From NCBI GenBank assembly GCA_014584695.1, contig JACTMI010000004.1, positions 128,006 through 192,005 on the forward strand: DNA of 64,000 bases. Reading direction: 5' to 3'. Positions 5,100 to 14,973 of the stretch are shown here, one piece after another. Position 1 is the stretch's first letter; every line of letters starts with the position of its first letter. This stretch comes from Acidobacteriota bacterium. Lineage in GTDB: Bacteria > Acidobacteriota > Thermoanaerobaculia > Multivoradales > JAGPDF01. The notes below the pieces were generated by a model. It saw nothing but the letters and a program-made list of their open reading frames with translations, did not search any database and was not told where the DNA came from. Position numbers and translations under genes: made by a program.

Positions 5100-5693
5100 T
5101 CACCCCTGAGGCGCGCCGGCGGTGGACCGCACCAGGCCGTGGGGCAGGCGGGCGGCGCAGTCGGCGCAGAAGGTGGCGCCGCGCAGATCGGCGGCCTCGA
5201 CGCTGGCGGCGAAACGCATCAGGCAGGCGGGGTCCTCGCAGTGGGCGAGCCCGGCGGCGTGCCCTAGCTCGTGCAGGATCTCGGCCGCGGCGCGCCGCGC
5301 GACCAGCCCCGGATCGCGCGGCAGGCCGTAGTGCTCGGGGTCGAGCCGGGCGAGAGAGATCACCACCGCGCGGCCGCCCAGCCGGGCGCGGCCGAAGACG
5401 TAGGCGAAGATCGGCACGGCGATGTCGACGGCGGTGATCCCGACCAGAGGTGCGTCGACTTCGGCCAGCGGCTCGAGGCTCACCAGCAGGCGGTCGGCGT
5501 CGAGCTGCGGTCGGTTCGGCACCCGCGGCAGCTCGCCCGCGAGCGGTGGCGGCACCGCGCGGCAGGGCAGCGCGCTGCGCTTCGACAGCTCGAGCGCCAA
5601 CCGTTCCAGCGTACCCTCGTCGAGCTGCGCGACCGGCGCGAGGTGAATCTCGCGCCAGGTCCGTGGCGCGCCGTGCGCCGGCGAATCCATCAT
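5100..5693 (-). CDS. archaemetzincin-like zinc metallopeptidase
   Basis: HELGHAAGLAHCEDPACLM...CADC matches the archaemetzincin signature HExxHxxGxxHCxxxxCxM...CxxC; 197 aa; only the 3' third of the 456-aa track ORF is real. Confidence 0.7.
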   Translation of the reverse strand: MMDSPAHGAPRTWREIHLAPVAQLDEGTLERLALELSKRSALPCRAVPPPLAGELPRVPNRPQLDADRLLVSLEPLAEVDAPLVGITAVDIAVPIFAYVFGRARLGGRAVVISLARLDPEHYGLPRDPGLVARRAAAEILHELGHAAGLAHCEDPACLMRFAASVEAADLRGATFCADCAARLPHGLVRSTAGAPQG

Positions 5694-5719: not shown

Positions 5720-7086
<1,367 letters not shown>

Positions 7087-7090
<4 letters not shown>

Positions 7091-8775
7091 GCGGGCCTCC
7101 GCTCCGCGGCCGACTCCGGCGCGCCCTCGACCGGCGCCGGCTGCCGGACCGGCAGCTCGACCGTGAAGACCGCGCCCGAATCGGGCGGCGAGTCGACGTC
7201 GATGCGCCCGCGGTGACGCTCGACGATGCCGTAGACGATGGCGAGGCCGAGGCCCACGCCGGCGCCTTGCGACTTGGTGGTGAAGAACGGCTCGAAAACG
7301 TGGTCGATGACCTCCGGCGGGATGCCGCGCCCGGTGTCGGAAACCGTCAGGAACAACCGCTCGCGCGTCGTGTCGGTGCGCGCCGCGACGCGCACGCGGC
7401 CGCCCTCGGGGGTGGCTTCGAGCGCGTTGATCAGCAGGGCGAGCAGCGCCTGCTGGATCTGGGACGCGTCGCACTCGACGGGCGGCAGGTCGGCCGCCAG
7501 GACGATCTCGAGCTCGACGCCCGCGAGCTGCGCCTGGTGGCGCAGCAGGAGGACGCATCGCTCGACGATCGGCGCGATCTCGGCGGGCGAGAACAGGGCG
7601 CCGGGAGTGCGCGAGAACAGCAGCAGGTTGCGCACGATCTCGCCGCAGCGCAGGGCCTCGTCCTCGACCAGCTTGAGGATGCGGTCGATGTCCATGCCGG
7701 CGGTGCCGTCGGTCACCGGCGCGCCGGCGGCGAGCGCCTCCTCTCGCCGCCGCCGCAGCAGGCGGGCGTAGGTGGCAATGCCGGCCAGTGGATTGTTGAG
7801 CTCGTGCGCGACGCTCGCCGAGAGCTTGCCGAGCGAGGCCATCTTCTCGACCCGCAGCAGGTGCTGGTGGGTGAGCTCGAGCTCGCGGGTCTTCTCCTCG
7901 ACCCGCTCCTCGAGCCGGTGCCCCCAGGAGGCGAGCTCGGCGTGGGCGGCGCCGAGGTCGGAAGCCATCCGGTTCCAGGCGCGCGCGAGATCTCCCAGCT
8001 CGTCGGCGCCGCCGGCCGGCACGCGCGCCGAGAAGTCCCCCTCCGCGAGGCGCGGCGCGGCGGCGGTCAGCGCCCCGACCGGCCGCAGGACCAGCCACCA
8101 GGCGAGCAGGAAGGCGAGGGCGACGACGGCGGCGACGGTCGCCACCAGGCCAGCCAGCAGCTGGCGCTGGGAGTCGGAGAGGGCGGCGTCGACGCGCGTC
8201 AGCGGCAGCTGGACGTCGAGCACGCCGAGCACCGTCTGCTCCGGCGGGTGGGCGTGGCAATCCGCGTTCGAGCAGGCCAGCTCGTTGCGCACGGGCGAGA
8301 TGAGGCCGAGGATCCGGCCCTCCCCGGGCCGGGTGAAGATGCGCGTCCGGCCCGGCCCGAGCGGGCTCTCGAGCGCGGTGTCGCCGGCGTGACAGGAGAC
8401 GCACTGCTCGGCCGAGAGGTCGACCTGGTGACCGATCTCCGAGCTTTCGCTGGAGTGGGTGATCCGCCCCTGCTTGTCGAACACCCGCACGCGGTCGATC
8501 GTCTCCTGCGCCGCGAGCGTGCCGACGATGCGCGACAGCTCGGCCGTGTCGTTGCGCAGCATCGAATCGCGGGTCGCGCCACGGATGACCTCGACCACGG
8601 TGTCGGCCTGCGACTCGACGACGCGCGTGAGCTGCCGGCGTTGGGAGGCGAGATTCCACGCCCCGGCGGTGACCAGAATGGCGGCGGCGCCCGCCGACAG
8701 GACGAGCGCCAGCCGCAGGGCGAGGCGAAAAGGCGGTGACCGCCGCGAGGCGGCCACCGCCGGGCGCTGGGTCAT
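7087..8775 (-). CDS. sensor histidine kinase with two TM helices and a periplasmic domain carrying CxxCH
   Basis: HisKA H-box [13 protein letters not shown], HATPase G-boxes ([18 protein letters not shown]), HAMP-like linker; periplasmic CVSCH and CSNADCH motifs between the two TM segments. Confidence 0.85.
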
Positions 8776-8782
8776 CGCGACC

Positions 8783-9976
8783 TCACGCCACCCGGCCGGC
8801 CGTCGCCGGCAGCGGGCGGCCCGACGGACCCGAAGGCGCCGGCGCGGCGTGGTGCCCGCCGTCGGCCTCAGGATACACCCGGAAGTATCGCACCATCAGC
8901 GCGAAGGCCGCGAACCCGATCGCCACCATGAACAGCGAGATGGCGATCTCGGTCCAGGCCGGAACGTAGCGGGTGCCGGCCGCGGTCTCGAGCCCGGTGA
9001 CGCTGACGTTCAGGCGATTGACCACGAAGCCCATCACCGTGAGCAGCGCCGCCGGGTAGAGCCGTCGGATGTCGGCACGGGCACGCGGCGAGAGCAGGAG
9101 CAGGAAGGGCAGGACGACTCCGAGCGCCAGCTCGAGGGCGAACAGCGAGGCTTCGTAGGTGGGCTGGAAGGCCAGGGCGAGGACGCCGCGGTGGATCAGG
9201 TCGTAGATCCGGAAGATCGCGAACACGCCCAGACCGACCAGCAGCACGCGCGAGATGTCGGTGAGCAGGTCCATTTCCAGCTCGCGGCCGAAGGCGCGCG
9301 AGGAGAGGCGCGACTCGACGATCACCATCGCGAGCCCCGCGACGATCGCCGACGACCAGAAGATCCAGGGCAGCGCCGCGGTGTACCAGAGGGGATGGAG
9401 CTTGCCCGGCACGATCAGGTAGAGGGCTCCGAGCGAGGACTGGTGGAGGGTCGACAGCAGAACCCCCGCCAGCACCAGGGGGATGGTCGCCGCGCGCTGC
9501 ACCGCCTGCGCGCGCTTCCAACCCACCTTCTCGAACACCATGCCGGAGAGCTCGAGCGCCAGCACCGCGGTGTAGAGCATCACGCACCACGCGACCTCGA
9601 ACATCACCGAGCTGGGGTTCCACATCACGATCGGATGCCAGATGTTCCAGGGCCGCCCGAGGTCGAGCAGCAGCGCGCCGATCACCAGCAGGTAGCCGAG
9701 GAACGCGGTCAGCACCGCGGGCCGGACGATGGGATGGAAGCGCTTCAGGTTGAAGATGTAGACCGCCGCGGTGATGGTGAAGCCGCCGGCGGCGAGGCCG
9801 ACGCCGCACAGCAGGTCGAAGCCGATCCACAGACCCCAGGGGAACTCGTCCGAGAGGTTGGTGGTCGCGCCCAGCCCTTGGCTGTAGCGCAGGGCGACCA
9901 CCGGCAGGCCGACGGCGAGCAGCAGGTAGAAGATCCCCCGCCAGAGGGGGAAGCGGTTCGTCTCACGCGCGGTCAT
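8783..9976 (-). CDS. NrfD/PsrC/HybB-family polytopic membrane quinone-interacting subunit
   Basis: About 8-10 predicted TM helices; NrfD-like family resemblance; ATG at 9976 has a GAGGAG RBS (the track GTG at 10000 is an alternative); overlaps the FeS gene by 14 nt. Confidence 0.7.
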   Translation of the reverse strand: MTARETNRFPLWRGIFYLLLAVGLPVVALRYSQGLGATTNLSDEFPWGLWIGFDLLCGVGLAAGGFTITAAVYIFNLKRFHPIVRPAVLTAFLGYLLVIGALLLDLGRPWNIWHPIVMWNPSSVMFEVAWCVMLYTAVLALELSGMVFEKVGWKRAQAVQRAATIPLVLAGVLLSTLHQSSLGALYLIVPGKLHPLWYTAALPWIFWSSAIVAGLAMVIVESRLSSRAFGRELEMDLLTDISRVLLVGLGVFAIFRIYDLIHRGVLALAFQPTYEASLFALELALGVVLPFLLLLSPRARADIRRLYPAALLTVMGFVVNRLNVSVTGLETAAGTRYVPAWTEIAISLFMVAIGFAAFALMVRYFRVYPEADGGHHAAPAPSGPSGRPLPATAGRVA

Positions 9977-10745
9977 GGTTCGACTCCTCGGCCGCGGCAC
10001 GGGCCGCGTGCTCGGCGCGCGCGACCTCTTCGCGCCGGTTGGTGATCCACCAGATACCGGCCAGCATCGCGCCGCCGATCGACAAGATGCCGGGGATCTT
10101 CTCGAGCGCGGCCGCCGTCAGGGCGGGCAACGGAGCGCCGTCGAGCGCCGGGAAGCCGAGCTGCTCGAACGGCACCGGCGACAGGAACAGCATCGACGTG
10201 CCGCCGATCTCGTGCTCACCGTAGACGTGCGGATGGTAGGTGTCCGGGCTCTCGGCGATGCGCCGGTGCGCCTCGGCGATCAGCTCGTCGCGGGGGCCGA
10301 ACACGGTGGCCTCGGCGGGGCAGGCCTCGGCGCAGGCGGTGGGCTGGCCCTCGGCCTGGCGGGTGGCGCAGAAGTCGCACTTGACGACCGCCGGCACCGC
10401 CTTGTCCCACTCGTACTTCGGCACGTTGAACGGGCAGGCCTGCATGCAGTAGCGGCAGCCGAGGCAGCGCTTGGCGTCGTAGACCACCGGGCCCGCGGGG
10501 AGCTTGCGGAAGGCCTCGACCGGGCAGACGCTGACGCAGGAGGGCTCCAGGCAGTGGCGGCACATCTGCCGGACGTAGATCCCGTCGCGCTCCTCGAGCG
10601 CGGTGAGCGAGCGCGACGAGAGGGCGCGGACCGTCTCCGGGTCGGTGTCGAGGTGATGGGCGGCCAGGCAGGCCGCCGTGCACTCGTTGCAGCCGATGCA
10701 GCGGGTCAGGTCGATGAGCAGGGCCTGCGGACGGGCGAGGGCCAT
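9963..10745 (-). CDS. 4Fe-4S ferredoxin-type subunit (HybA/PsrB-like), C-terminal TM anchor, no signal peptide
   Basis: Four Cys clusters (CIGCNECTAAC, CRHCLEPSCVSVCP, CLGCRYCMQACP, CDFCATR...CAEACP); C-terminal hydrophobic helix IPGILSIGGAMLAGIWWI; no Tat motif at the N-terminus. Confidence 0.8.
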   Translation of the reverse strand: MALARPQALLIDLTRCIGCNECTAACLAAHHLDTDPETVRALSSRSLTALEERDGIYVRQMCRHCLEPSCVSVCPVEAFRKLPAGPVVYDAKRCLGCRYCMQACPFNVPKYEWDKAVPAVVKCDFCATRQAEGQPTACAEACPAEATVFGPRDELIAEAHRRIAESPDTYHPHVYGEHEIGGTSMLFLSPVPFEQLGFPALDGAPLPALTAAALEKIPGILSIGGAMLAGIWWITNRREEVARAEHAARAAAEESNHDRA

Positions 10746-10755
10746 GGGCCACCTC

Positions 10756-11430
10756 TCAGGTCAACAGGAATGCGCGGGTCAGCCGCCGCCACTCCTCGTC
10801 GGAGAGGTGGCTGGCGAAGTCGGCCGCCGGCTCGCCGCCGTCCGCGAGGACGGTGCCGGAGAGCGCCATCAGCTCGAGCTGCAGCTTCTCGCGCGAGTCC
10901 TCGGCGAAGCGGTGGGCGAGGCTGCCCGAGAGCAGGTTGTCGATGTTGCGGCCGAGCTCGGTGGTGCGCAGCTTGAAGAGCCAGCCGCGGCCATAGGGAT
11001 CGGTGGTCGCCAGGCCGGGCTGCCGCTCGACCAGTGGATTCGTCTCGATGACCTCCCCTTCCATCGGGGAGACCAGGTCGACGTCGCGGCCGTCGAGGCC
11101 GAGTCGGGCGGCGGGCTCGCCGGCGCGCAGCCAGGTGCCGGGGGCCGGCAGCTTGGCGCGGGTCGCCGGTCCGATCAGCCGCCGGGCGAAGTCGTCGAGC
11201 CCGACCGCGGCGGTGTCGGTGCCGGTCGGACGGGCCCAGGTGTGGCCGCGATGGAAGTGGAGCCCGTCGGGAACCATCAGGCCGGCCACCCAGACCGGCT
11301 CGACCCGGAAGCCCTCGGCGGCCTCGGGGCGGGTGGCGATCGCCGGAACAACGGCCTGCTCCCGGCGATGCATCCAGGCGTCCAGCGCGATGAAGATCGC
11401 GAAAGTCGCCAGCACGAAGAGAACGGTCAT
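10756..11430 (-). CDS. membrane-anchored glycine-cleavage H-protein-like (GcvH-fold) protein
   Basis: N-terminal TM helix (MTVLFVLATFAIFIALDAW), then GcvH-like core: HTWARPTG...AVGLDDFARRLIG ... EGEVIETNPLVERQPGLATTDPYGRGWLFKL (compare GcvH SGEVVEVN...DPYGEGWLFKI); GGAGG RBS before ATG 11430. Confidence 0.55.
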   Translation of the reverse strand: MTVLFVLATFAIFIALDAWMHRREQAVVPAIATRPEAAEGFRVEPVWVAGLMVPDGLHFHRGHTWARPTGTDTAAVGLDDFARRLIGPATRAKLPAPGTWLRAGEPAARLGLDGRDVDLVSPMEGEVIETNPLVERQPGLATTDPYGRGWLFKLRTTELGRNIDNLLSGSLAHRFAEDSREKLQLELMALSGTVLADGGEPAADFASHLSDEEWRRLTRAFLLT

Positions 11431-11472: not shown

Positions 11473-11492
11473 TAGGCAAGAGATATGCCGAT
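11473..11492 (-). promoter_or_regulatory. candidate sigma-54 -24/-12 promoter (cGGCATatctcTTGCc) for the minus-strand operon
   Basis: GG-N10-GC spacing with TTGC at -12 on the minus strand; partly overlaps the palindrome; the operon itself encodes a sigma-54 activator. Confidence 0.25.
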
Positions 11493-11508
11493 TTCGGATT
11501 CCGAAATC
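11490..11508. promoter_or_regulatory. perfect 19-bp palindrome GATTTCGGATTCCGAAATC in an AT-rich divergent intergenic region (candidate operator)
   Basis: 9-nt arms around a single central T; about 60 nt upstream of the GcvH-like operon start and about 270 nt upstream of the divergent SDR gene; the local sequence is visibly AT-richer than the rest of the window. Confidence 0.4.
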
Positions 11509-11775
11509 TCCATCAGCAAGTAACTCCAGTCCAGTGAATGAAATAGAGGCATCGTCCAAGAGCTGTAGAGGGCTGCCACAGCACGGAGGCCGACGTGGAG
11601 AATTTCAACAGGCAACCGCCGGCGGCCGTGGCGATTCGCTCGGAAGCCCGATTCCTTGGCCTTCCAACGACTTGTAGAGGAATCGAACAGTCAACGCTGG
11701 GTTTCTCTACACTTCGCGGGTGCTGCGGGAGCGGCTTGCCTTGACCTCCCCAGGACCCCGTTCTAGGGTGCGCCG

Positions 11776-12985: not shown

Positions 12986-13786
12986 ATGGCGATTGCGCCG
13001 CGCAGCTTCCGCTACCAGCTCGACGCCGATTCGGCGGTGGCGACGCTGACGCTCGACCGCCCGGAGCGGTTGAACGCGCTGACCTTCGAGGTCTACGAGG
13101 AGCTGCGCGCCACCTTCGACGCGCTCGACACCGAGCCGGGGGTGCGCGCCATTCTGCTGACCGGCTCCGGACGGGCGTTCTGCTCCGGCGGTGACGTCGA
13201 GTCGATCATCGGCGAGCTGTTCGCGCGCGACGCCCGCGGGCTGCTCGATTTCACCCGCGCGACCGGCGCCCTGATCCGCTCGATGATCGGCTGTCGCCGG
13301 CCGATCGTCGGCGCGTTGAACGGCACCGTCGCCGGCGCTGGCGCGGTGATCGCCTGCGCCTGCGACCTGCGGATCGCCGCCGAGAGCGCCAAGATCGCGT
13401 TCCTCTTCCCCAAGGTCGGCCTCTCCGGGGCCGACATGGGCGCCTCCTGGCTGCTGCCGCGGATCGTCGGCCTGGGCCGCGCCATGGAGATCCTGATGGG
13501 CGGCGAGTTCGTGGACGCGACGACCGCGGAGCGGATCGGCCTCTATCACGCGGTGGTGCCGGCCGAGCGCTGCCTCGGCGAGGCGCGGGCGCGGGCCGAG
13601 AAGCTCGCCGCCGGTCCGTCGTTCGCGCTCGAAGTGACCAAGAAGATGCTCTACCGCGAGGCGGCGATGGATCTCGACGCCGCGCTCCAGGCGGAGGTCG
13701 AGATCCAGTCGATCTGCATGCAGGACCCCAACTTCCGCGAGGCCTACGAGGCCTTCCGCGGCAAGCGCCCGCCGCAGTTCGGCTGA
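12986..13786 (+). CDS. enoyl-CoA hydratase/isomerase (crotonase fold)
   Basis: LTLDRPERLNAL, GSGRAFCSGGDV oxyanion-hole motifs; ATG 12986 preceded by GGAGAG (the track starts at an in-frame GTG 12977). Confidence 0.8.
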   Translation: MAIAPRSFRYQLDADSAVATLTLDRPERLNALTFEVYEELRATFDALDTEPGVRAILLTGSGRAFCSGGDVESIIGELFARDARGLLDFTRATGALIRSMIGCRRPIVGALNGTVAGAGAVIACACDLRIAAESAKIAFLFPKVGLSGADMGASWLLPRIVGLGRAMEILMGGEFVDATTAERIGLYHAVVPAERCLGEARARAEKLAAGPSFALEVTKKMLYREAAMDLDAALQAEVEIQSICMQDPNFREAYEAFRGKRPPQFG

Positions 13787-13809
13787 GCGAGCGACCGGCG
13801 CGGCCCGCC

Positions 13810-14973
13810 ATGAGCGCACCCGACCCGGGGCTCGTCGAGCAGTTTCTCGCCCCCGCGCACCTCGAGCTCGCCGCCGCGGCGGCGAGCTTCGTCGCGGAGC
13901 GGATCGCGCCGCGGCCGCCCGCGAACGACGACGCGGCGGCGCGGCGCGAGGCGCCCGAGCTCGCCGTCCTGCTCGGCGGCGCCGGCGCCTTGCGGCCGGC
14001 GCTGCCTCGGGCTCCGGAGGCGCGCCCCGACTTGCGGGCGATCTGCCTCTGGCGCGAGACGCTGGCGGCGGCCTCGCCGCTGGCCGACGCGGTCTACGCC
14101 CTCCAGGCGCTCGGCGCGATGCCGATCGTGCTCGCGGACAACCAGGACGCCCAGCGGCGTTGGCTGCCGGAAGTCGAAGCGGGGCGCGCGCTGGCGGCCT
14201 TCGCGATGACCGAGCCGGAGGCCGGCTCGGACGTCGCCGCGATCGCGACCCGCGCCGTGCGCGCCGGTGACGGCTACCGGCTCGACGGCCGCAAGCACCT
14301 GATCTCGAACGCCGGCATCGCCGACTTCTACTGCGTCTTCGCGCGCACGGACGAGGCGGCGGGAGCGCGCGGCCTCTCCTGCTTCGTGGTGCCAGCCGAT
14401 GCGCCCGGCCTCCGCTTCGCCGGCGCCCAGGTACTTTCCGAGCCCCACCCTCTGGGCGAGATCGCGTTCGAGAACTGTTTCGTCCCGAGCGCTTCGCGAC
14501 TCGGCGCCGAAGGCGCGGGGCTGAAGCTGGGCTTGGCCGCCCTCGACCGGCTGCGGCCGACGGTCGCCGCGGCCGCCTGCGGCATGGCGGCGCGCGCGCT
14601 CGACGAGGCGCTCGCCCACGTGCGCGAGCGGCGGCAGTTCGGGCGCCCGCTCGCCGAGCAGCAGCTGGTCCAGCAGAAGCTGGCGCGGATGGCGACCGAC
14701 CTCGCCGCCGCGCGGCTGCTCACCTACCGCGCCGCGCACGCCGCCGACACCGGCGCCGCCCGGATCACGCTCGAGGCCGCCCAGGCCAAGCTCTTCGCCA
14801 CCGAGGCCGCGCAGCGGACCGTCGACGACGCCGTCCAGCTGCTCGGGGGCCGCGGCGTCCTCGCCGCGTCGGTCACCGACCGCCTCTACCGCGCCGTCCG
14901 CGCCCTGCGCATCTACGAGGGCACCTCGGAAATCCAGCACCTGGTGATCGCGCGCGAGCTGCTGCGCGGTTGA
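13810..14973 (+). CDS. acyl-CoA dehydrogenase
   Basis: Three-domain ACAD architecture; C-terminal IYEGTSEIQ catalytic-base motif. Confidence 0.85.
   Translation: MSAPDPGLVEQFLAPAHLELAAAAASFVAERIAPRPPANDDAAARREAPELAVLLGGAGALRPALPRAPEARPDLRAICLWRETLAAASPLADAVYALQALGAMPIVLADNQDAQRRWLPEVEAGRALAAFAMTEPEAGSDVAAIATRAVRAGDGYRLDGRKHLISNAGIADFYCVFARTDEAAGARGLSCFVVPADAPGLRFAGAQVLSEPHPLGEIAFENCFVPSASRLGAEGAGLKLGLAALDRLRPTVAAAACGMAARALDEALAHVRERRQFGRPLAEQQLVQQKLARMATDLAAARLLTYRAAHAADTGAARITLEAAQAKLFATEAAQRTVDDAVQLLGGRGVLAASVTDRLYRAVRALRIYEGTSEIQHLVIARELLRG

Follow-up and report, generated by a model that had tools for sequence, protein, structure and literature searches.

We analyzed a window of 64,000 nucleotides, i.e., the whole stretch taken from contig JACTMI010000004.1 of an Acidobacteriota bacterium (assembly GCA_014584695.1, positions 128,006 to 192,005), and focused on a gene for a sensor histidine kinase whose periplasmic domain carries two motifs typical of c-type heme attachment. 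The kinase is one of six clustered genes on the minus strand, which also encode a sigma-54-dependent response regulator and a putative quinone-linked membrane module. The gene and the features of its product are the following (ORF, open reading frame; GC3, G+C content at third codon positions; TM1 and TM2, first and second transmembrane helix).

7087-8775, minus strand: sensor histidine kinase of 562 amino acids, with TM1, a periplasmic sensor domain predicted to hold two hemes, TM2, HAMP, HisKA and HATPase_c (ORF list, Pfam, GC3 of 0.95)
8656-8730, minus strand: TM1, residues ~16-40, with an Arg-rich N-terminus ahead of it (hydropathy scan)
8161-8655, minus strand: periplasmic sensor domain, residues ~41-205, with a single-Cache or PAS-like fold (AlphaFold2 model, Foldseek, profile match to 3B42 and 3B47)
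8560-8562, minus strand: M72, located where the helix extending from TM1 ends, and predicted to serve the Cx4CH heme as distal axial ligand (invariance, alignment with Met60 of GSU0935, model)
8389-8403, minus strand: heme motif 1, C125-V-S-C-H129, a canonical CxxCH and the extra site, in the loop that joins strands 2 and 3 (sequence, alignments, profile)
8254-8274, minus strand: heme motif 2, C168-S-N-A-D-C-H174, a Cx4CH (sequence; homologous to the heme CxxCH of GSU0935 and GSU0582)
8248-8250, minus strand: H176, within C-H-A-H, candidate distal ligand of the extra heme (94% conserved; putative assignment)
8086-8160, minus strand: TM2, residues ~206-230 (hydropathy scan at 204-238; HAMP directly after)
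7804-7806, minus strand: H324, the phospho-accepting His of the H-box A-H-E-L-N-N-P (Pfam and sequence; the column is nearly invariant in relatives)

A hydropathy scan with a 19-residue span found only two hydrophobic segments in the kinase, at residues 16-42 and 204-238, and Pfam places HAMP at residues 227-274, HisKA at 315-389, and HATPase_c at 436-544. Since the N-terminus is Arg-rich, the hydrophobic helices are two, and HAMP comes straight after TM2, residues ~41-205 are assigned to the periplasm. A preliminary description of this DNA had put the heme motifs there, between two transmembrane helices, and the scan together with the position of HAMP bears this out, as against a cytoplasmic location where heme could not be attached. 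The kinase and the adjacent regulator fit the definition of an NtrC-type pair, i.e., HisKA and HATPase_c beside a protein with REC, a sigma-54 AAA+ domain (GAFTGA), and HTH.

Both motifs are present as described, CVSCH and CSNADCH, and the interval 8254-8403 that had been given for them runs exactly from C125 to H174. In the reverse complement, positions 8389-8403 read TGC GTC TCC TGT CAC and positions 8254-8274 read TGC TCG AAC GCG GAT TGC CAC. Among the 36 high-GC3 ORFs of the window (72.5% G+C), the kinase is the only one with a CxxCH or a Cx3-4CH. The high G+C content of the window also produces spurious long ORFs, such as one of 979 amino acids (5720-8659, minus strand), which is the kinase read out-of-frame and fused to the regulator. 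Similar errors are found in databases, where three relatives (P0001, P0023 and P0034) are frameshifted gene calls with out-of-frame tails rich in Arg, Pro and Ala.

To see the family, an exhaustive HMMER search was needed, as word-indexed searches with the N-terminal 248 amino acids or with the sensor domain alone returned 5 matches each. The exhaustive search, made against 1.84 billion cluster representatives (50% identity), gave 1037 representatives with a related sensor domain at E<=1e-3 and 518 at E<=1e-10. Both CxxCH and Cx4CH, ~43 residues apart, were found in 141 of 155 relatives. Where the two were not both present, most of the inspected entries were truncated or visibly frameshifted; motif 1 was genuinely lost, with motif 2 kept, in one relative (P0069), and another (P0063) has a Cys-to-Ser change in motif 2. 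In a domain alignment anchored on motif 1, M72 is present in 139 of 139 sequences, and C168, C173, H174 and H176 are conserved at 98%, 99%, 99% and 94%. The alignment was repeated without the anchor on 77 full-length relatives, in which both Cys pairs, the His next to each, M72 and H176 were invariant or at least 90% conserved. Judged from the sequences, such conservation of the motifs is far beyond chance. The spacer of motif 2 varies among relatives (Cx2CH, Cx3CH or Cx4CH) while the CH is always kept, and this argues for a heme site over a Zn or Fe-S site. The preliminary description had taken the motifs for c-type heme-attachment signatures, a reading that would have suffered if the Cys and His residues varied among orthologs. 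Their retention, the variable spacer before a fixed CH, and the alignment with known heme domains described next all support probable heme attachment.

A profile of 41 family members matched two structures of the Protein Data Bank (PDB) in two collinear stretches: 3B42, the sensor domain of GSU0935 (E 2.4e-7), and 3B47, that of GSU0582 (E 3.3e-5). For comparison, the window sequence alone matched 3B42 with an E-value of 0.016. The Cx4CH of the family falls on the heme-binding C-Q-S-C-H of both structures, and M72 falls on chain residue 26 of 3B42, which is Met60 of GSU0935 (the offset was taken from chain residue 110, i.e., His144, the proximal heme ligand). Between the aligned stretches the profile has ~35 positions, against 18 residues in 3B42, and the first CxxCH lies inside this longer segment. 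As only motif 2 aligns on the heme site of the solved domains, we consider it the ancestral site and motif 1 the added one. The family of these domains in Pfam, PF21563 (Mcp40H-20_sensor), was matched by 38 of the 41 members at E<=1 (best 1.2e-8) and by 33 of the 77 relatives at E<=1e-3, and some relatives carry a precomputed match to it. The DUF3365 domains, proposed for comparison in the preliminary description, are the weaker match: at E<=1, PF11845 (DUF3365) was matched by only 8 of the 41 members, with 0.0075 as the best E-value, and the window protein did not match it.

The AlphaFold2 model of the sensor domain, computed from an alignment of 51 sequences, has a mean predicted local distance difference test (pLDDT) of 88.3 and a predicted template modeling score of 0.81. 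Its first element is a long helix that extends TM1 (residues 31-73, with M72 at its end), followed by a second helix, two strands, and the loop with motif 1. After this loop come three strands, with motif 2 placed between the last two (strands 124-134 and 153-162 of the model), and a C-terminal helix leading into TM2. The best Foldseek matches are the single-Cache sensor domains of WalK, DctB, CitA and KinD, with E 5e-6 and template modeling scores of about 0.55-0.7 for WalK and E 1e-4 for CitA; the swapped-dimer structures 3B42 and 3B47 are absent among the best 50 Foldseek matches listed. The heme-c "PAS-like" sensors were moved to the Cache superfamily in 2026 (PMC12889525), and the single-Cache placement by Foldseek agrees with this reassignment. 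A multiheme cytochrome c of the c3, c7 or NapB-like kind was considered and rejected, given marginal matches (NapB at E 0.085, Cytochrome_C7 in 2 of 41 members, Paired_CXXCH_1 in 3 of 41) and a model with a Cache fold. Taken together, the sensor domain of the kinase is a putative two-heme relative of the Geobacter heme-c sensor domains GSU0935 and GSU0582.

Besides the two His of the motifs, M72 and H176 are the only conserved His or Met residues of the domain. M72 is assigned to the heme of motif 2 (heme 2) because it aligns with the distal Met60 of GSU0935. This makes H176, the only other conserved candidate and just two residues past H174, the natural choice for the sixth ligand of the heme of motif 1 (heme 1). 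In cytochromes c3, a His next to the proximal His of one heme ligates the neighboring heme. With these assignments, predicted from the alignments, a sensing heme with His/Met ligands and a relay heme with two His ligands would be in close contact.

The kinase is embedded in a six-gene cluster, whose other members and promoter are listed here.

11475-11490, minus strand: sigma-54-type -24/-12 element, CGGCAT-N5-TTGCC, ~45 nucleotides upstream of the ATG of the GcvH-like gene (sequence, footprinting)
10756-11430, minus strand: GcvH-like protein, membrane-anchored, first gene of the operon (Pfam GCV_H, E 4e-18; ribosome-binding site and ATG at 11430)
9963-10745, minus strand: HybA/HmcB-like 4x[4Fe-4S] protein with a hydrophobic helix near its C-terminus (Pfam Fer4_11 and others; NCBIfam HmcB and HybA)
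8783-10000, minus strand: NrfD/HmcC/HybB-like quinone-interacting membrane protein, 7 nucleotides upstream of the kinase (Pfam NrfD, E 1.9e-22)
5720-7090, minus strand: sigma-54-dependent response regulator, with REC, AAA+ (GAFTGA at residues 226-231) and HTH_8 (Pfam), starting directly past the stop codon of the kinase
5100-5693, minus strand: peptidase of family M54, archaemetzincin-like, last gene of the cluster (Pfam PF07998, E 9e-19)

The genes upstream of the kinase overlap or lie a few nucleotides apart. Against NCBIfam, the NrfD-like protein scores 336 bits with HmcC and 298 bits with HybB, both under the cutoff. The Fe-S protein matches HmcB and HybA only from model position 37 or 40 onward; its N-terminus is the first cluster motif, without a twin-arginine translocation signal, both in the window and in a Bacteroidota locus (L017:3836-4603). 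Since the Fe-S protein lacks an export signal, the module probably faces the cytoplasm, and this suggests an orientation that is unusual for such Fe-S/NrfD pairs. A periplasmic electron link between the sensor and the quinone module, as had been assumed earlier, is therefore not indicated here. In the GcvH-like protein the domain comes after an N-terminal membrane anchor, and the column of the lipoyl-lysine holds Gly in 29 of 39 cluster homologs and no Lys among its four most frequent residues, as aligned with an E. coli GcvH sequence. Three GcvH-like paralogs are present in the Bacteroidota locus L017 (2408-3058, 3108-3764, 5875-6708), and in one of them a Cys-rich N-terminal motif, C-x16-C-x5-C-x2-C, replaces the anchor. 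The M54 peptidase carries the motif HELGHxxGLxHC.

A genome scan with a 10-sequence alignment found 78 related loci. They come mostly from Acidobacteriota (Thermoanaerobaculia, Bryobacterales, Vicinamibacteria, Terriglobia), Bacteroidota and Ignavibacteriota, and other records are labeled Planctomycetota, Verrucomicrobiia, Rokubacteria, Deltaproteobacteria and Polyangiaceae. The closest is in a metagenome-assembled genome (MAG) labeled Acidobacteria bacterium (L001, 78%), followed by MAGs of Thermoanaerobaculia (70-73%). We counted neighbors in the 50 loci with enough flanking DNA. The sigma-54 regulator is adjacent in 43 of them, the M54 peptidase is present in 41, the Fe-S and NrfD-like pair in 39, and the GcvH-like gene also in 39; all six genes occur together in 33. 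The gene order of the window is found in 29 loci, and nine others have kinase, peptidase and regulator, then the Fe-S, NrfD-like and GcvH-like genes. The suggestion that the sensor belongs with the quinone-module genes upstream of it is thus strongly supported by the recurrence of the pair beside this type of kinase in several phyla. The kinase output is also retained, with HAMP and HisKA in 73 of 77 relatives and HATPase_c in 67 of 77. We found no published description of the six-gene cluster when searching the literature on its gene combinations.

A multiheme cytochrome was also considered as a general partner of the cluster and was rejected, as a multiheme ORF is present in only 15 of 79 loci. 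Some lineages have their own variants. An NrfD-like ORF with three C-terminal CxxCH motifs was observed in two loci (L026:4285-6027 and L053:4430-6034), and a small ORF with three CxxCH follows the GcvH-like gene in four others (L038, L060, L065 and L072, near 13600-14200). In these genomes, and not in the window, c-hemes would be attached to the module from the periplasmic side. Two MAGs labeled Gammaproteobacteria and Burkholderiales (L031, L057) have the same type of kinase without the NrfD, Fe-S and GcvH-like genes. Its neighbors there are ORFs with 5-10 CxxCH, which resembles the arrangement of GSU0599 near the cbc cytochrome genes in Geobacter.

The -24/-12 element before the GcvH-like gene has 3 mismatches to TGGCAC-N5-TTGCW; it came to light on inspection of the intergenic DNA and through phylogenetic footprinting. 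A search of the whole window for this consensus with 2 mismatches allowed did no better than chance, with 11 occurrences found and 13 expected. The element is found at the identical offset in four related loci (L002-L004 and L026), and it still aligns in two others (L005, L006) where the surrounding DNA has diverged. In seven loci of Bacteroidota and Ignavibacteriota (L017, L025, L033, L035, L037, L041 and L042), a near-consensus element lies just before the kinase gene; these score 10-11 of 11, and four of them read TGGCACG-N4-TTGCA. We infer that the cluster very probably forms a sigma-54 regulon controlled by the regulator it encodes. Next to the element of the window, and abutting it, is a 14-nucleotide inverted repeat, ATGCCGATTTCGGA / TCCGAAATCTCCAT (11485-11513). 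Further inverted repeats and motifs resembling GTGGAGA / TCTCCAC lie 130-250 nucleotides further upstream (11649-11716) and may be regulator binding sites.

The best explanation we can offer is that the kinase uses a single-Cache domain with two c-type hemes to read the periplasmic redox potential and thereby drives its own sigma-54 operon, and we regard the case for it as evenly poised. It builds on what was observed or computed: the motifs and their conservation, the topology, the fold, the homology, the synteny, and the conserved promoter. From these we infer that the hemes are bound, that H176 is a ligand, which signal is read, and which target is regulated. The mechanism would be as follows. 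Heme 2 would be bound covalently at C168 and C173, with H174 as proximal and M72 as distal ligand, and would correspond to the single heme of GSU0935 and GSU0582. Heme 1, added in the loop between strands 2 and 3, would be bound at C125 and C128 with H129 as proximal ligand; it would probably be ligated by two His, the second being H176, and would probably relay electrons between heme 2 and redox carriers of the periplasm. His144 and Met60 are the axial ligands in GSU0935, where the spin state changes with the redox state, and Met60 binds the iron upon reduction and is displaced by nitric oxide (NO) and carbon monoxide (CO) (PMC8396549). The kinase would most likely read the periplasmic redox potential in a similar way, with a redox change of heme 2 switching M72 on or off the iron. 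This switch may shift the TM1-linked helix relative to the sheet leading into TM2, a movement that HAMP would pass to the kinase core. The kinase would then phosphorylate the adjacent sigma-54 regulator, which in its phosphorylated form would drive the promoter before the operon of GcvH-like, Fe-S, NrfD-like, kinase, regulator and peptidase genes.

Several points weigh against this explanation. The window protein stays below the PF21563 threshold of 27 bits, scoring 17.9 bits over its full length and 22.8 bits when the domain is taken alone. The loop with motif 1 was modeled without heme and with low confidence (pLDDT 56-68). The members with two motifs, including the window kinase, are known from their sequences alone. 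Neither cytochrome c maturation genes nor other c-type cytochromes were found within the 64-kb window. Finally, redox sensing and gas sensing are not separated here, given that the single-heme relatives bind NO and CO. By analogy with characterized relatives (PMC8396549, PMC12889525), the kinase is a credible redox or gas sensor.

The alternative that fares best keeps the same two-heme domain and changes the signal, which would be a diatomic gas (NO, possibly CO or O2) that displaces M72 or binds a five-coordinate heme. In GSU0582 and GSU0935, NO binds whatever the redox state and CO binds to the reduced form, with displacement of Met60 (PMC8396549), and heme Cache domains fused to signaling modules show properties typical of NO sensors (PMC12889525, published in 2026). 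The invariant M72 would suit a displaceable ligand, and the ~6% of relatives without H176 would leave heme 1 open. However, an extra heme that is probably six-coordinate and a conserved linkage to a quinone module are better suited to electron exchange, and the conserved cluster has no NO-detoxification genes. We thus consider a gas signal possible but rather unlikely.

It is improbable that heme sits at the Cx4CH site only, the first CxxCH being a periplasmic thiol/disulfide switch or a metal site. Such an arrangement would account for the position of motif 1 in a low-confidence loop without counterpart in the solved structures, and for the relative P0069, which dispensed with motif 1 and kept motif 2. 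Yet H129 equals the cysteines in conservation, although a disulfide has no need of this His, and loss of motif 1 is very rare, most apparent losses being the frameshifted or truncated entries. Moreover, the extra motif of such sensors has been described as an additional heme-binding motif (PMC3831638).

More improbable still, the hemes could be mainly electron-transfer cofactors, so that the sensor domain would be a redox partner of the NrfD-like/Fe-S module (e.g., a periplasmic entry point for electrons) and signaling a by-product. The tight synteny with the module would be expected in this case, as would the periplasmic hemes associated with it in some lineages (L026, L053; L038, L060, L065, L072). 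Against it, an export signal is missing from the Fe-S protein both of the window and of L017, which puts the redox centers of the module probably on the cytoplasmic side; NrfD-type proteins are not known to carry a cofactor for transmembrane electron transfer; and the domain is borne by a complete HAMP-kinase in 73 of 77 relatives. The last alternative, a coincidental resemblance in which the four Cys and nearby His would make up a Zn or Fe-S site without heme, or else a pair of structural disulfides, is very improbable and was rejected: the CxxC...CxxxxC spacing is superficially like that of zinc-knuckle pairs, but each motif has an invariant or almost invariant His behind its second Cys, of which a metal or disulfide site has no need, the spacer of motif 2 ranges from 2 to 4 residues with CH retained, and in the alignment with the solved domains motif 2 falls on their heme site and M72 on their distal Met.

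Extending the redox explanation to the cluster, we tentatively propose, and with some doubt, that the two-heme kinase acts as the sensor of a six-gene module that had not been described before. In this module, the periplasmic redox state read by the hemes would turn on a quinone-linked redox system facing the cytoplasm, with the GcvH-like protein as its substrate or carrier. Bacteria have few known means of reading redox state or gases outside the cytoplasm, heme-c Cache/PAS sensors being one of them, and the sensors of this type that have been studied have a single heme and come from Geobacter, Thermosynechococcus and Pseudomonas. The putative two-heme version forms a large family (over 1000 clusters at 50% identity), nearly always coupled to a HAMP-kinase and a sigma-54 regulator and abundant in phyla of soil and sediment such as Acidobacteriota, Bacteroidota and Ignavibacteriota. 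The predicted pairs of ligands, H129 with H176 and H174 with M72, offer a map for testing. The sensor is moreover tied to a conserved and uncharacterized quinone-linked cluster, which can be studied as one regulon.

How does this kinase compare with known systems? The type of heme-c sensor domain has been known since 2006-2008 from GSU0582 and GSU0935 (PMC3831638, PMC8396549). Like these domains (3B42, 3B47; PF21563), that of the window kinase lies between two transmembrane helices, has a PAS-like/Cache fold with a heme motif between the last two strands, and has its probable distal Met on the N-terminal helix (M72 here, Met60 there). The Geobacter sulfurreducens proteins are chemoreceptors with one heme and a canonical CxxCH, whereas the window kinase has a Cx4CH at the homologous site, a second CxxCH in a loop longer by ~17 residues, and a HAMP-histidine kinase output. 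An additional heme motif, with the signature CX2-4CH, has been stated for GSU0591, GSU0599, Adeh_2011 and Adeh_3383 (PMC3831638, PMC8396549), and for GSU0599 the published listing gives two heme motifs on a two-component protein (PMC8396549). Compared by description only, these four are, like the window kinase, PAS-like periplasmic two-motif sensors homologous to GSU0935 and GSU0582. Hence, two-motif sensors are already noted in the literature, none of them characterized, and the window kinase is not a new kind of sensor; the conserved six-gene cluster is the more novel element.

Other sensors are more distant. The sCache_heme domains (DUF3365/Tll0287, PF11845) share the Cache scaffold, the insertion of a c-heme motif between late strands, and the role of extracytoplasmic sensor, and they bind NO (PMC12889525). 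Unlike the window kinase, with its Cx4CH at the homologous site, they have a strictly canonical single CxxCH, which is 99% conserved (PMC12889525). The sensor domains of CitA, DcuS and WalK are single-Cache domains and the best structural matches to the model, but they are cofactor-free binders of small molecules or have no known ligand, and they lack Cys/His heme motifs. Public annotation of the relatives gives "NtrC family sensor kinase", "HAMP domain-containing protein" or "PAS domain S-box protein", and the name used by the Joint Genome Institute is "two-component system NtrC family sensor kinase".

The system around GSU0599 differs in its module, having a b/c-cytochrome quinone oxidoreductase (cbcBA) nearby in place of the NrfD, Fe-S and GcvH-like genes. 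GSU0599 is presumed, from locus numbers only, to adjoin bccR (GSU0598). BccR is a sigma-54 regulator that induces the quinone oxidoreductase CbcBA as the redox potential falls, and the paper describing it makes no mention of a cognate kinase (bioRxiv 10.1101/2021.04.15.440034). The proteins regulated in Geobacter sulfurreducens differ from those of the window cluster. By analogy, both systems would nonetheless join a sigma-54 response regulator, an operon for a quinone-linked membrane oxidoreductase, and a -24/-12 promoter. BccR and CbcBA therefore offer a precedent for the regulatory logic that we propose for the operon of the window.

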